Shown here one piece after another: positions 48,353-53,501 of a DNA stretch of 64,000 bases. How positions within the stretch are numbered: position 1 is the stretch's first letter; every line of letters starts with the position of its first letter. The stretch comes from Escherichia coli. Its GTDB lineage: Bacteria > Pseudomonadota > Gammaproteobacteria > Enterobacterales > Enterobacteriaceae. The notes under the pieces are model-generated. The model was not told the origin of the DNA, made no database searches, and saw only the letters and a program-made list of their open reading frames with translations. The stretch lies in the NCBI RefSeq assembly GCF_009931435.1, contig NZ_CP043414.1; one strand, given 5' to 3'. Made by a program: the position numbers and the translations under genes.

Positions 48353-49062
48353 AAATCGAACTGACGGTGAATGGATTGAAGGTACAGGCGCAGTACCCGA
48401 ACGAAGAGATTGAAAATGTGCATAAACCGTTGCTGCGTATGCTGGCAGCCTTACAGACGGTAAATCCGCAGCGGCGTACCGTGGTTTTTCTTTGCGCTCC
48501 GCCGGGGACGGGTAAATCTACCCTAACCACTTTCTGGGAATATCTCGCGCAACAAGACCCGGAACTACCCGCTATTCAGACGCTGCCGATGGATGGTTTT
48601 CACCATTACAATAGCTGGCTGGATGCGCATCAATTGCGCCCCTTTAAAGGCGCACCAGAGACATTCGATGTGGCAAAACTGGCGGAAAATCTGCGCCAGG
48701 TAATGGAAGGGGATTGTACGTGGCCGCAGTACGATCGACAAAAGCATGATCCTGTTGAAGATGCGTTGCACGTTACCGCACCACTCGTCATCGTCGAAGG
48801 AAACTGGTTGTTGCTGGATGACGAGAAGTGGCGCCAGCTTGCGCAATTTTGTGATTTCTCGATCTTTATCAACGCGCCAGCTACTGCGTTGCGGGAACGA
48901 CTGGTGGGGCGCAAGCTGGCGGGAGGGTTATCGCTGGCAGACGCAGAAGCCTTTTATGACCGTACCGATGGGCCGAATGTTCGCCGGGTGCTGGAAGAGA
49001 GTCTGCCTGCAAATTTGACCTTAATGATGACCGCTACGGGTGAATATCGTCTGGTGGATTAA
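48349..49062 (+). CDS. yggC: P-loop kinase-like protein YggC
   Basis: 237 aa; Walker A GTGKST (LCAPPGTGKSTL). Confidence 0.85.
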   Translation: MKIELTVNGLKVQAQYPNEEIENVHKPLLRMLAALQTVNPQRRTVVFLCAPPGTGKSTLTTFWEYLAQQDPELPAIQTLPMDGFHHYNSWLDAHQLRPFKGAPETFDVAKLAENLRQVMEGDCTWPQYDRQKHDPVEDALHVTAPLVIVEGNWLLLDDEKWRQLAQFCDFSIFINAPATALRERLVGRKLAGGLSLADAEAFYDRTDGPNVRRVLEESLPANLTLMMTATGEYRLVD

Positions 49063-49711
49063 CGTTCCTGATTACACCATCTTCCAGTCGCACCACACGA
49101 GAGAAATGACGCCGGGTAAATGCGGCGTCATGACTGATTGCTACGACGCTCGTGCCTCGCTGGCGGCACTTTTCCAGCCAGCTTTCAAACACGCTCATCC
49201 AATTTTCGTCAAAATCCCGACTCGGCTCGTCCAGCAGCAATAGCGGCGGAGAGAGTGCTTCCAGGCAGGCGACGGCGACCATCCGTCGCTGCGCACTATG
49301 CAGATCTAACGGATGCGCGCTGGCAGTGTCTGCTAACTGACAGCATTGCAGGGCAGCATTGGTACGTTGAGTGATTTCATCCGCCAGGCATTTTTGCAGT
49401 TTCAAACCAAATGCGATCTCGTCAGCGACGGTGCTGTGAAAAAGCTGGTTTTCCGCTTCCTGAAACAGTACGCCAATCTTTGCTGCACGTTGGCGGTTTT
49501 TCAGGTTTTTCATCGCCTGTTGTTGCAGCATAACCGTACCGGCTGTGGGCGTAAGAAGACCTGCCATTACTCGTAACAGCGTCGATTTTCCCGCGCCATT
49601 GTCGCCGGTCAGCGCCAACCATTCACCTTGTTTGAGTTGCAGAGAAATGTCGCAAAGACAATCCGTTGCCGCGCCAGGCCAGCGATAAGACATCTGATTT
49701 AACGTTAACAT
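49034..49711 (-). CDS. ABC-type ATPase, second ATPase of an ECF-type transporter, with degenerate signature motif
   Basis: Walker A GDNGAGKST; Walker B LLLLDEP; H-loop ISHD; signature position reads LHSAQ instead of LSGGQ. Start ambiguous: 49711 (MLTLNQMSYRW) or 49744. Confidence 0.65.
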   Translation of the reverse strand: MLTLNQMSYRWPGAATDCLCDISLQLKQGEWLALTGDNGAGKSTLLRVMAGLLTPTAGTVMLQQQAMKNLKNRQRAAKIGVLFQEAENQLFHSTVADEIAFGLKLQKCLADEITQRTNAALQCCQLADTASAHPLDLHSAQRRMVAVACLEALSPPLLLLDEPSRDFDENWMSVFESWLEKCRQRGTSVVAISHDAAFTRRHFSRVVRLEDGVIRNVNPPDDIHP

Positions 49712-50388
49712 AGTGGCTGGAGCGCTCCGTTTTGCAATTGCCACGCTTGCTGGCAGTAGTTCAGGAAAGGTGTGCGATGACGTTCAAAAAGAATAATCAG
49801 CGAACCACGTTCAAACGCCCAGTGTTGTAAGCGCTGCAACAGCATTTCGCTGGCCTGCGGCGTCAGGCGACTAAAGGCTTCATCAAGAATTAATAGTTTT
49901 GGCTGCATCGCGATGGCGCAGGCGATGACCACGCGCTGTGTCTCTCCACCGGAGAGTGTTGCCGGGTGACGATGGCGCAACGGCTGGCACTCGGTCAGAG
50001 TCAGGGCAGCATCAATCCGCGCCATAATCTCCTCTTCAGCAAGACACAGATTTTCTGGCCCAAAGGCAACTTCTTCTTCCACGCTAAAGGTACAGCCGGA
50101 GAGCTGCAAATAGGGCGATTGCTGAACGAGCTGGATGGTGGCGGATTGTTCATTAAGCGGGAGATACCCAATGGGCGTACCGAGAAGCGTCCCCGTGCCG
50201 GTTATCTCTCCTGGCAGAAAGTCCGGATACCAGCCCGCCATCAGTTGCGCCAGCGTACTTTTGCCACTGCCGTTGTCACCAAAGATGGCGACTATCCCCG
50301 GTTTGACATAGTGAAAGTCATAACAGAACGGAGGGTGCGTTGAGTGTGTCGGGCAATAGCGAAACTGTTCTAACGTAACCATATCCAC
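49705..50388 (-). CDS. ABC-type ATPase, first ATPase of an ECF-type transporter
   Basis: Walker A GDNGSGKST; Q-loop; canonical signature LSGGETQRV; Walker B LLILDEA; about 227 aa. Confidence 0.75.
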   Translation of the reverse strand: MDMVTLEQFRYCPTHSTHPPFCYDFHYVKPGIVAIFGDNGSGKSTLAQLMAGWYPDFLPGEITGTGTLLGTPIGYLPLNEQSATIQLVQQSPYLQLSGCTFSVEEEVAFGPENLCLAEEEIMARIDAALTLTECQPLRHRHPATLSGGETQRVVIACAIAMQPKLLILDEAFSRLTPQASEMLLQRLQHWAFERGSLIILFERHRTPFLNYCQQAWQLQNGALQPLC

Positions 50389-51077
50389 GCTCCGAATTCT
50401 GCCAGCATCAGCAAGATCATGGCGTAACGTGCCACTTTTTCCAGGTTACTGTCAGGCGGTGCCCATAACGTAGTGCGCCGGTTGTGGATCCGAAATGCCC
50501 GCATATCCAGCGCCGCACCACGGATAGCCAGATCGTTTAGCGCATTGTGTGTTAGCGGAATAATTAGCGCGGGTATAGCACGTAAACGCTGATACCAGCC
50601 CTCATCCAGCGGCACCCCACGGGCGCGCTGCGCTTCATGAATAATCGCTAATTGCCGTTTTAACTGCTCAACGACCAACAAAGGCCCAGCGAACAGATAA
50701 GCGACGCCCGGCGGCAGGCGAGAAGCAAACAAAGCGCGGATAAAACGTTGCACTGGGACGAATTGCATCCACAACTGCGAGGTTGAAACAATCGCCAGAA
50801 TCCGCAACCAGAGCGTAATAGCATGCGTCCACCGTTCTGGCGAGCGTGGCGTGCCGCTTAGCCATTCTGTCAGCCAGCCACCGTGTACCAGCCACAGTCC
50901 AGCCCCCAGCGAGAACATCAGCCAGACAACATATTTTACCCGCCGCCGCGTGGCCTTTAGCGCAATAAGGCAGAAAAAGGTCGCCGCGCTATAGAATGGC
51001 AGTATTGTCTGTGTGGGCAGGATAAGCGTGGTGCAGGCCGCCAGCGCCCACAGCGTTAGGGATGTAAACGGATGCAT
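50370..51077 (-). CDS. ECF transporter transmembrane T component (EcfT/CbiQ-like)
   Basis: 235 aa polytopic protein with Arg-containing coupling motif (EAQRARGVPLD); start codon abuts the stop of the upstream gene. Confidence 0.65.
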   Translation of the reverse strand: MHPFTSLTLWALAACTTLILPTQTILPFYSAATFFCLIALKATRRRVKYVVWLMFSLGAGLWLVHGGWLTEWLSGTPRSPERWTHAITLWLRILAIVSTSQLWMQFVPVQRFIRALFASRLPPGVAYLFAGPLLVVEQLKRQLAIIHEAQRARGVPLDEGWYQRLRAIPALIIPLTHNALNDLAIRGAALDMRAFRIHNRRTTLWAPPDSNLEKVARYAMILLMLAEFGAWIWLR

Positions 51078-51656
51078 TTAGCGCACGGCAGCCATTGCCG
51101 GAAAATGGCGCGTGGTGCGAATCGGCAGCTGACGCAGTAAAAGCCAGACAATCACCGCTGTAAGAATTTTATCGACCAGGTTTGCGCCTATCACCGTAAT
51201 CGCCACCGACTCCACCAGGTTTTGCCCCATAGAGTGCATCCAGGCAACGAACAAATCGGCTCCGCTACCGGTGACACCGCCGAACAGCGCAGTACGCAGC
51301 GGTACAGCGACGACCGTTACTGCAAGCGTAATAATCACGCCGCTGACAACGACTTTTGGCAGGGTGCGAAACCAACCCGCTCGCGCCAGCCAACCGGCGA
51401 CCAGGCCAATAACCATCGCCACGGGGGCAAAGGCGGCGGCGATCGGGTCGGTGAGCAATCCCCAGAGTAAATTGGTCAGTAAGCCGGTCAGCATCCCGAT
51501 CACCGGACCAAGCAGTACCGCGCTAATAAGTGTGCCGATGGAGTCGAGAAATATAGGTAATTTGACCATGCTGGCCAGTTGCCCGCCAATCATATTGATG
51601 GCGATAGAGATAACAATCAACACCAGTGCTTGACTGGAAAAGTGGCGACGCGCCAT
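51078..51656 (-). CDS. Putative ECF transporter substrate-capture S component
   Basis: About 190 aa small polytopic protein (start chosen at MARRHFSSQALVLIVISIAINMIGG; ORF extends further); LDSIGT-like motif; first membrane gene of the module. Confidence 0.5.
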   Translation of the reverse strand: MARRHFSSQALVLIVISIAINMIGGQLASMVKLPIFLDSIGTLISAVLLGPVIGMLTGLLTNLLWGLLTDPIAAAFAPVAMVIGLVAGWLARAGWFRTLPKVVVSGVIITLAVTVVAVPLRTALFGGVTGSGADLFVAWMHSMGQNLVESVAITVIGANLVDKILTAVIVWLLLRQLPIRTTRHFPAMAAVR

Positions 51657-51678
51657 AAGAAAACCTCTCTGAAAGTAG

Positions 51679-52110
51679 TTATTTAACGGGGGAAATATGC
51701 AATTCGTCGTAACCAGAAAGCGCGCAAGGTTGGCGGCTAAACGCCAGCTCCTCAAGGCAGCCGATCACCAGTTCAAGCGTGGTCCGCACGGTACAGCCGG
51801 GCATCATATGACCGCCAAGCATCGTGCCGTGTGGATCGGAAACGCAGAGATGAAGATGTTCACCACTCTGTTCCAGTGTGCCGTTCAATGCGATGACTTC
51901 GAACTTACCGCTTAGTAGGGCCGTGTTTTCTTGCCCGGCATAGCGTAAGGCGACGTCAGTCAGACTGCCGGTACAACCTGCAATCCACGCGGCGTGGAGT
52001 TGTTGTTGCTGCGCGAAGGCGCGTAATTGGGAGAGAACTTCCTGCCCTGGGAGCAGGCGCAGCGCGTAAAAGCGTGCGGAGGAAGAATATGGGTAGGGCA
52101 ATGTCATCAT
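51679..52110 (-). CDS. Small cytoplasmic protein, possibly PPC/DUF296 domain
   Basis: 143 aa soluble protein; first gene of the minus-strand operon, divergent from epd; domain call by resemblance only. Confidence 0.45.
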   Translation of the reverse strand: MMTLPYPYSSSARFYALRLLPGQEVLSQLRAFAQQQQLHAAWIAGCTGSLTDVALRYAGQENTALLSGKFEVIALNGTLEQSGEHLHLCVSDPHGTMLGGHMMPGCTVRTTLELVIGCLEELAFSRQPCALSGYDELHISPVK

Positions 52111-52481
52111 TGGAGTACTCCGAAACTCGGACGTATTGCGGATAATATCGACGCTGCATCAGTCATATTCTGATATAAGTCAGGGTTTGTGACGGCACAA
52201 CGAAAAGATTTTGCTACGCTTATTCGTGATTCTGCAAAGTGGAATAAATTCCACAGGGGCGGGGATGAAAACGTGACGTAAGTCAGATAATTGTCTTCTT
52301 TGACTGGACAATCATTCCTTTTATTCCACGTTTCGCTTATCCTAGCTGAAGCGTTTCAGTCGATTAAATGTTCGACAATTAACCAATCAGTCGCAGTTTG
52401 CGACAGGTAAGGTTTCCCCGGACGATTTGCTGGATTACTCTGTCTGGCAAATTTGCTCAGGGAAAACCTTGCAGGAGATCT

Positions 52482-53501
52482 ATGACCGTACGCGTAGCGA
52501 TAAATGGCTTCGGTCGCATCGGGCGTAATGTGGTTCGTGCTTTGTATGAATCCGGACGCCGGGCGGAAATTACCGTGGTGGCAATCAACGAACTGGCGGA
52601 TGCTGCGGGCATGGCGCATTTGTTGAAATATGACACCAGTCATGGCCGTTTTGCATGGGAAGTACGACAGGAACGCGATCAACTTTTTGTTGGTGATGAC
52701 GCCATCCGCGTATTGCATGAACGTTCACTGCAATCGCTCCCATGGCGTGAACTGGGCGTCGATGTGGTTCTCGACTGCACCGGCGTATATGGCTCCCGCG
52801 AGCATGGCGAAGCACATATTGCCGCCGGGGCCAAAAAAGTGCTCTTTTCACATCCTGGCAGTAACGATCTCGATGCGACCGTTGTTTACGGCGTCAATCA
52901 GGATCAACTTCGTGCGGAACACCGCATCGTTTCTAACGCTTCCTGTACCACGAATTGCATAATTCCCGTCATCAAATTGTTAGATGATGCGTACGGTATT
53001 GAGTCCGGCACTGTGACCACAATTCACTCCGCCATGCACGATCAACAGGTTATTGATGCATACCATCCTGACCTGCGTCGCACCCGGGCAGCCAGCCAGT
53101 CGATCATTCCGGTCGATACTAAACTGGCCGCCGGTATCACACGATTTTTTCCGCAATTTAACGATCGCTTTGAAGCGATTGCGGTACGTGTGCCAACCAT
53201 AAATGTGACGGCAATCGATTTAAGCGTGACGGTGAAGAAACCTGTAAAAGCCAATGAAGTCAACCTGTTGCTGCAAAAAGCAGCACAAGGTGCATTTCAT
53301 GGTATAGTTGACTATACGGAATTGCCGTTGGTCTCTGTAGATTTTAACCACGATCCGCACAGTGCCATTGTCGATGGCACCCAAACCCGGGTCAGTGGCG
53401 CACACCTGATCAAAACGTTGGTCTGGTGCGATAACGAATGGGGCTTTGCTAACCGAATGCTCGACACGACGTTAGCTATGGCTACTGTTGCTTTCAGGTA
53501 A
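52482..53501 (+). CDS. epd: D-erythrose-4-phosphate dehydrogenase
   Basis: ORF trimmed to [25 protein letters not shown] start (339 aa); SCTTNC active-site motif. Confidence 0.95.

Follow-up and report, generated by a model that had tools for sequence, protein, structure and literature searches.

The two ATPases encoded by a conserved transporter cassette of Escherichia coli carry complementary deviations from consensus, and their sequences and conservation support a pair with one consensus and one deviant ATP site. The cassette lies on the minus strand (49034-52110) of a 64,000-nucleotide stretch of contig NZ_CP043414.1 (assembly GCF_009931435.1), referred to here as the window. It consists of five genes, for a PPC protein, an S component and a putative T component of the energy-coupling factor (ECF) type, and the ATPases A1 (upstream) and A2 (downstream), both of which are now annotated merely as 'ABC transporter ATP-binding protein' (ABC, ATP-binding cassette). 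Each ATP site of an ABC dimer takes its Walker A, Walker B, Q-loop and H-loop from one domain and its signature from the other (PMC7756269). In an A1-A2 dimer, site I would join the A1 core, which has an arginine in place of the H-loop histidine, to the LHxxQ signature of A2, and site II would join the A2 core to the LSGGE of A1 and be of consensus composition. The two deviations would fall into one and the same composite site, because in a head-to-tail dimer the H-loop pairs with the signature of the partner. We consider it probable that A1 and A2 form an obligate 1:1 heterodimer of a dedicated, vitamin-type ECF importer, in which site II hydrolyses ATP and site I binds it with little or no turnover.

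A preliminary description of this DNA, made from the sequence alone, had drawn attention to a degenerate signature in the downstream ATPase. The translation bears this out: window positions 49280-49303 on the minus strand encode LHSAQRRM, residues 137-144 of A2, and in phmmer alignments with both halves of ABCB4 and ABCB1 the L-H-S-A-Q falls exactly on L-S-G-G-Q. Walker A, Walker B and H-loop, described as retained, are indeed all present in the translation (Table 1), together with a Q-loop FQ and a D-loop SRDFD. The extent given for the gene, 49034-49744, has to be corrected. Its GTG start at 49744 would create an overlap of 40 nt with A1; translation in fact begins at ATG 49711 and yields a protein of 225 aa. 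Gene names and starts follow throughout those that RefSeq (PGAP) gives for a genome with 99.9% identity. A canonical signature elsewhere in A2 can be discarded, since the string 'SGG' is absent from all 120 closest A2 protein clusters. In the 116 of these clusters that span the region, the motif reads LHTAQRRM (88), LHSAQRRM (18) or LHAAQRRM (10), and LH[S/T/A]AQRRM is found in Escherichia, Salmonella, Citrobacter, Atlantibacter, Klebsiella and Leclercia. Relatives from Serratia and Proteus (54-58% identity) and the fused homologue P0123 (41% identity) have LHAGQ, and a common pattern LH[STA][AG]Q is thereby kept from Escherichia to Proteus and in the fusion.

The upstream ATPase had been described as having a canonical signature, which is borne out (LSGGE followed by TQRV), but the protein is not fully canonical, since its H-loop deviates. 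The position of the histidine is occupied by Arg201, a point that the preliminary description missed. In a MAFFT alignment of 290 nucleotide-binding domains the A1 stretch L-F-E-R-H is aligned with A-I-S-H-D of A2, placing Arg201 on His194, and the same register resulted when the profiles of the two families were compared with hhalign. A motif [F/L/V]-E-R is found in all 105 clusters that contain the region among the 120 closest A1 clusters. The residue that follows is hypervariable (N in 43, H in 17, R in 15, also Q, D, K, T, S, E, G and others), and for this reason we regard His202 of the E. coli protein as incidental. Strand boundaries assigned by DSSP to the AlphaFold model place the H-loop position at Arg201 when counted from the start of the strand and at His202 when counted from the end of the preceding helix; we take Arg201 because residue 202 is hypervariable and the two alignments agree. 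The remaining A1 core includes the Q-loop glutamine in addition to the Walker motifs.

That A1 and A2 would work together as a 1:1 heterodimer is supported by natural fusions. P0123 (503 aa) is a single-chain A1-A2 protein inside a cassette of PPC, S, T and ATPase genes; its N-terminal domain carries LSGGE, AFSRL and F-E-R, and its C-terminal domain LHAGQ and SHD. Two further proteins, P0131 and P0149, are triple fusions of T, A1 and A2 with the C-domain signature LNSAE (loci L010 5001-7052 and L011 5001-6959, polypeptides of 683 and 652 aa), and PPC and S genes lie upstream in one of these two loci. The N-terminal domain of P0149 has L-E-R, again with arginine at the H-loop position; the match to the N-terminal domain of P0131 stopped short of that region. 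An AlphaFold2 model of A1-(GGGGS)6-A2, for which concatenated orthologues were aligned together with natural fusions (127 rows), reached a predicted local distance difference test (pLDDT) of 92.5 and a predicted TM-score (pTM) of 0.87, the linker being the sole part of low confidence. Searched with Foldseek as a whole chain, the model finds fused two-domain ABC ATPases as best matches, with the highest TM-score for ATP-bound DppD of Mycobacterium tuberculosis (TMq 0.76). The best matches of the single domains include CbiO (dimer 5x40, root-mean-square deviation 1.6 Å) and EcfA of ECF-PanT. The heterodimer predicted earlier, in which one site is consensus and the other degenerate, thus gains support from the A2 signature, from Arg201 of A1 and from the fusions.

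A similar, one-sided pattern emerges in more distant relatives. Most of the proteins that A2 recovered in an exhaustive search of representatives have two domains, and in ten two-domain relatives that were checked the best NCBIfam matches were ECF ATPase and CbiO models. We analyzed the 139 fused relatives with both domains complete among the best 150 matches to A2, a set that is descriptive and not an unbiased survey. The equivalent of site I in these proteins is formed by the N-domain core and the C-domain signature. It is the only deviant site in 100 of the 139 proteins; the other site alone deviates in 4, both sites in 10 and neither in 25. The C-domain signature is non-canonical in 106/139, with variants including LSLPW, LGPSR and IPPAR, and the N-domain signature is canonical in 125/139. 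The catalytic residues of the C-domain are nearly always retained (Walker A lysine and Walker B glutamate in 139/139, H-loop histidine in 138/139), and the N-domain has lost its H-loop histidine in 40 proteins, the Walker B glutamate in 14 and the Walker A lysine in 6. Proteins without the N-domain histidine also tend to deviate in the signature of the C-domain (odds ratio 3.7, Fisher p = 0.016, phylogeny being ignored). Because the fused relatives deviate mostly at the site I equivalent, E. coli A1/A2 is, as judged from sequence, the split-gene form of a widespread and directional asymmetry among duplicated-domain ECF-type ATPases.

In the mechanism that we propose, a dedicated importer of the ECF type (type III ABC) would have A1 and A2 as its nucleotide-binding subunits, obligatorily paired 1:1 and head to tail in a heterodimer whose two ATP sites are unequal. 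Site II, made of Walker A, Q-loop, Glu162 and His194 of A2 and the LSGGE of A1, would be the hydrolytic site and drive the transport cycle. Site I, made of Walker A, Q-loop, Glu168 and Arg201 of A1 and the LHSAQ of A2, would deviate at two positions that contact the gamma-phosphate. It would most likely still bind ATP, because the P-loop of A1 is intact, and hydrolyse it slowly or not at all. Its role would then be that of a latch or regulator that holds or regulates the dimer, as proposed for asymmetric ABC exporters. The impaired hydrolysis at site I is what we infer from the motifs and their conservation, as are the assignment of the hydrolysing site, the ATP stoichiometry and the physiological role.

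Several observations weigh against a site I of such low activity. A1 keeps its Walker A lysine, its Walker B glutamate and its Q-loop glutamine, and PMC7544095 names loss of the Walker B glutamate as the hallmark of a degenerate site; with this hallmark absent, site I could still turn over. The histidine at the second signature position and the arginine at the H-loop position could in principle contact the gamma-phosphate themselves. The D-loop of A1, SRLT without the usual aspartate, faces the consensus site, and hence site II is not perfectly textbook either. Moreover, the one group II ECF module tested needed both Walker B glutamates (PMC10368641), and operation on a single site would thus lack an established precedent among ECF transporters.

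These points lead to the strongest competing explanation, namely that both sites are competent and that LH[STA][AG]Q together with F-E-R constitutes a re-wired working site, in which the histidine of A2 and the arginine of A1 replace the gamma-phosphate contacts of serine and histidine. It agrees with the retained Walker A lysine, Walker B Asp-Glu pair and Q-loop glutamine of A1, with the dependence of group II modules on both sites (PMC10368641), and with the strict conservation of the two substitutions, which does not look like random drift. The more deeply diverging T-A1-A2 fusions, however, have asparagine instead of histidine in their LNSAE signature, with the arginine kept as seen in P0149, and the signature histidine is therefore not universally required. 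In addition, the fused family shows clear loss-of-function changes at the same site, the missing N-domain histidines and Walker B glutamates counted above and signatures such as LSLPW, LGPSR and IPPAR, and the recurrence of such destructive changes suggests relaxed catalytic constraint at the site I equivalent. Replacement of the signature glycines by serine, threonine or alanine is also a typical change of degenerate sites, as in the LAAGQ of TAP2. On balance, we consider a re-wired working site possible but rather unlikely, and continue to favor a site I that binds ATP with little or no turnover.

It is much less plausible that A1 and A2 are unpaired, each of them being homodimeric or serving another transporter. 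In group I, ECF ATPases like CbiO and BioM do form homodimers, and the CbiO dimer 5x40 is the best structural match of the single domains. Against this stand the A1 and A2 genes, which are always adjacent and overlapping, and the existence of single-chain A1-A2 and T-A1-A2 proteins. Furthermore, pairing A2 with itself would make both signatures deviant, and pairing A1 with itself would leave both sites without an H-loop histidine; given that the deviations are complementary, a heterodimer alone makes sense of the pattern. The proposal that A2 is a decaying copy, or its motif a sequencing or assembly error, could appeal to the departure of the motif from consensus and to the accessory nature of the locus, which is missing from K-12, and is rejected as practically negligible on the basis of cross-genus conservation and low ratios of nonsynonymous to synonymous substitutions (dN/dS): the same motif recurs in thousands of independent genomes and several genera (about 3,280 complete E. 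coli genomes contain the 4.1-kb region at at least 95% identity, and the motif is present in the 116 region-spanning clusters), the open reading frames are full-length, the other catalytic motifs of A2 are invariant, and fused versions keep the motif. All five cassette genes have dN/dS values of 0.05-0.18 where dS is estimable, with 0.06-0.18 for A2, indicating purifying selection; they were obtained by the Nei-Gojobori method against four genera, and are rough because dS is near saturation.

The assignment of the transporter to the ECF class relies on profile matches to the individual components and their arrangement. Pfam cut-offs are 25 bits for ABC_tran (PF00005), 30.7 for ECF_trnsprt (PF12822) and 25 for CbiQ (PF02361). 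A1 and A2 belong to the ABC ATPase superfamily, as both exceed the PF00005 cut-off and contain Walker A, Q-loop and Walker B. A consensus signature and an H-loop histidine are not present in every domain (LHSAQ in A2, Arg201 in A1), which represents deviation within the family and not exclusion from it. The S component passes PF12822 with 34.6 bits vs the required 30.7; its nearest NCBIfam model is the CD3073 family (NF045596), at 136.2 bits vs a cut-off of 180, which makes it a relative and not a member. The T component matches CbiQ weakly, with 21.8 bits and thus under the cut-off, and has no NCBIfam match. Its sequence contains QRARGV, and an Ala-Arg-Gly motif is typical of the coupling helices of EcfT; the gene takes the same place in every orthologous cassette examined.

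The best NCBIfam matches of A2 are ECF_ATPase_2 (149.2 bits, cut-off 330) and ECF_ATPase_1 (142.5 bits, cut-off 315), and A1 reaches 120.3 bits vs a cut-off of 315 and 106.3 bits vs a cut-off of 330. These scores put both proteins far under the cut-offs of the group II EcfA1/EcfA2 equivalogs (TIGR04520, TIGR04521). With 225 aa each, they are without the C-terminal extension of EcfA/EcfA', roughly 50 residues long, and their alignments end at about position 222-231 of models 269-279 positions long. The Proteus orthologues of A1 and A2 (L008 5172-6822) have 281 and 273 aa and continue at the C-terminus for about 50 residues beyond the E. coli proteins, and the presence of the C-terminal domain therefore varies within the subfamily. 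The importer as a whole resembles the group I class, judging by the dedicated S gene in its operon.

Within the window, which is part of the E. coli chromosome, the gene order around the cassette is cmtA, yggP, glpX/yggF, fumE, yggC, the five minus-strand cassette genes, epd and pgk (features of the cassette are collected in Table 1). The 3' end of yggC (plus strand, ending at 49062) converges with that of A2 (minus strand, ending at 49034), and the two overlap by 29 nt (49034-49062). Inside the cassette, start and stop codons overlap by 7 nt between A1 and A2 (ATGTTAA, 49705-49711) and by 13 nt between T and A1 (50370-50382), and the stop of S abuts the start of T (51078/51077), which suggests that the four transporter genes may be translationally coupled. 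A mechanically called reading frame for S begins at TTG 51755 (225 aa) and runs into the PPC gene; the annotated ATG at 51656 (192 aa) is the one kept in orthologues.

Table 1. Genes of the cassette and motifs of its two ATPases, in window coordinates
Feature	Position	Strand	Length, annotation or support
PPC/DUF296 protein, cassette gene 1	51679..52110	-	143 aa; Pfam PCC 96 bits; PGAP 'PPC domain-containing DNA-binding protein'
S component	51078..51656	-	192 aa; Pfam ECF_trnsprt 34.6 bits; PGAP 'ECF transporter S component'
Putative T component (EcfT/CbiQ-like)	50370..51077	-	235 aa; PGAP 'energy-coupling factor transporter transmembrane component T'
A1, upstream ATPase	49705..50382	-	225 aa; Pfam ABC_tran 77.4 bits; PGAP 'ABC transporter ATP-binding protein'
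A1 Walker A, GDNGSGKST (consensus, Lys retained)	50254..50280	-	translation; conserved in clusters
A1 signature, LSGGE (canonical variant), then TQRV	49942..49956	-	LSGGE in 119 of 120 closest clusters
A1 Walker B, LLILDE (Asp167-Glu168 retained)	49879..49896	-	translation; DEAFSRLT in 120/120 clusters
A1 D-loop, FSRLT (without the usual Asp)	49861..49875	-	DEAFSRLT in 120/120 clusters
A1 F-E-R, residues 199-201 (Arg201 at the H-loop His position)	49780..49788	-	two alignments and conservation
A2, downstream ATPase	49034..49711	-	225 aa; Pfam ABC_tran 96.1 bits; PGAP 'ABC transporter ATP-binding protein'
A2 Walker A, GDNGAGKST (consensus)	49580..49606	-	translation; kept in orthologues
A2 signature position, LHSAQ (residues 137-141, replacing LSGGQ)	49289..49303	-	translation and alignment
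A2 Walker B, LLLLDE (catalytic Glu162)	49226..49243	-	translation; kept in orthologues
A2 H-loop, S-H-D (His194 retained)	49127..49135	-	translation; AISHD in 115 of 120 closest clusters

The 4.1-kb region is covered to at least 80% in 3317 of 5426 complete E. coli genomes (~61%). In K-12 MG1655 (3072672-3074689) the whole cassette is absent, and epd and yggC are neighbours, 284 bp apart. Atlantibacter and Salmonella have the cassette between epd and yggC as in E. coli; in Klebsiella it adjoins epd, and the other flank is a transketolase gene, not yggC. The position shared by several genera suggests an old enterobacterial locus that was lost by some lineages; alternatively, E. coli may have acquired the cassette laterally.

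The PPC protein is found upstream of S-T-A1-A2 in Atlantibacter, Klebsiella, Salmonella, Serratia and Proteus, and in two metagenomic fused versions. It is cassette gene 1 in every split-gene locus and in 2/3 fused loci, and the genomic contexts are unrelated. A close homologue, probably the Salmonella orthologue, has a known structure (2HX0/2NMU) with the title 'putative DNA-binding protein'. In the loci examined, the cassette contains only PPC, S, T, A1 and A2, with no extracytoplasmic solute-binding protein in the operon, and no conserved neighbour beyond it is informative on the substrate. When positions 48800-52700 were compared with Rfam at E<=1 for a riboswitch or leader that could hint at the substrate, only a chance match to an internal ribosome entry site came up, and promoter and terminator scans of the locus stayed at background level. 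A TAXI-type pair of the tripartite ATP-independent periplasmic (TRAP) transporter family, an NMT1_3 binding protein and a DctM-family membrane protein, adjoins the PPC-ECF cassette in two distant loci, one in Proteus (L008 7782-10796) and one in the metagenomic locus of a T-A1-A2 fusion (L011 889-3735). This neighbourhood may be a clue to the substrate, or a coincidence.

A more far-reaching idea is that only one site hydrolyses ATP in the PPC-linked ECF transporters of Enterobacterales, and more generally in most transporters of the ECF type whose ATPase domains are duplicated, and that their other site has not simply decayed but has co-evolved into a permanent ATP latch or an ATP sensor. This co-evolution may have combined the invariant arginine for the H-loop histidine in cis with the conserved histidine for the signature serine in trans, and the resulting site might stand in for the C-terminal dimerisation domain of group II EcfA/EcfA', which is missing in E. 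coli A1/A2. We regard this generalization as doubtful and offer it as speculation. If it were true, the cassette would provide a native E. coli system to study how many ATP are spent per substrate and what the asymmetry of the sites does in ECF transport. The ECF literature that we searched treats both ATP sites as canonical and required (PMC10368641). If the asymmetry of A1/A2 is functional, some ECF importers would use one ATP per cycle, and a genetically tractable native ECF transporter would be at hand in ~61% of complete E. coli genomes. Its absence from K-12 may explain why this transporter has not been studied. The analysis also draws attention to the many ECF ATPases with duplicated domains whose equivalent of this site has lost catalytic residues again and again.

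Asymmetric ATP sites have been described in several other ABC systems. A 2014 review describes degenerate sites as frequent in exporters. Full-text searches of one library brought up no account of an ECF transporter with a degenerate site, which is not proof that none has been published, no study on this E. coli locus and no paper tying PPC/DUF296 to ECF transport. Examples are the heterodimeric exporters TAP1/TAP2 (= ABCB2/B3), TM287/288, BmrCD, PatAB, MRP1 and CFTR. As in the A1/A2 pair, one of their sites combines a non-consensus signature with a non-consensus core of the partner, leaving a consensus site on the other side; they are also oriented alike, with the core of the first domain facing the signature of the second, and H-loop changes are found in ABCB2/B3 (PMC7756269). 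These exporters are of type IV/V, with nucleotide-binding domains fused to transmembrane domains, whereas the cassette encodes an ECF-type importer with soluble ATPase subunits. What the exporters most commonly lose from the core is the Walker B glutamate, which A1 retains, and the invariant arginine at the H-loop position and the LHxxQ signature set the present pair apart. Among bacterial importers, RbsA and NupO, fused nucleotide-binding domains of type II importers in Bacillus subtilis, likewise have one degenerate site, as noted in a 2024 paper (PMC11466899). They belong to another type of transporter, and their degeneracy includes losses of the Walker A lysine and of Walker B residues, unlike that of A1/A2.

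Also comparable are the group II modules EcfA/EcfA'/EcfT of Lactobacillus delbrueckii, L. brevis and Thermotoga maritima, in which two different ATPases act on one T component together with an S component. ECF_ATPase_1 and ECF_ATPase_2 are the best models for A1/A2, and EcfA of ECF-PanT is among the structural matches. In group II, however, both sites engage LSGGQ and each Walker B glutamate is required; the state of these sites is taken from PMC10368641, as two-domain exporters rank above solved EcfA/EcfA' chains in the PDB search. Moreover, A1/A2 score only 120-149 bits vs cut-offs of 315-330, have 225 aa vs about 280, and are accompanied by a dedicated S gene next to them. The fused two-domain ECF-type ATPases (YkoD-like, group I) offer a direct parallel, since P0123 is a single-chain A1-A2 in the same kind of cassette and the same one-sided deviation is seen in 100/139 relatives. 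They differ in that the E. coli domains are separate polypeptides, and the combination of F-E-R with LHxxQ is specific to the PPC-linked subfamily. The degenerate-site phenomenon as such is well known from ABC exporters, and its occurrence in the ECF class, as read from these motifs, would represent a variant of it.

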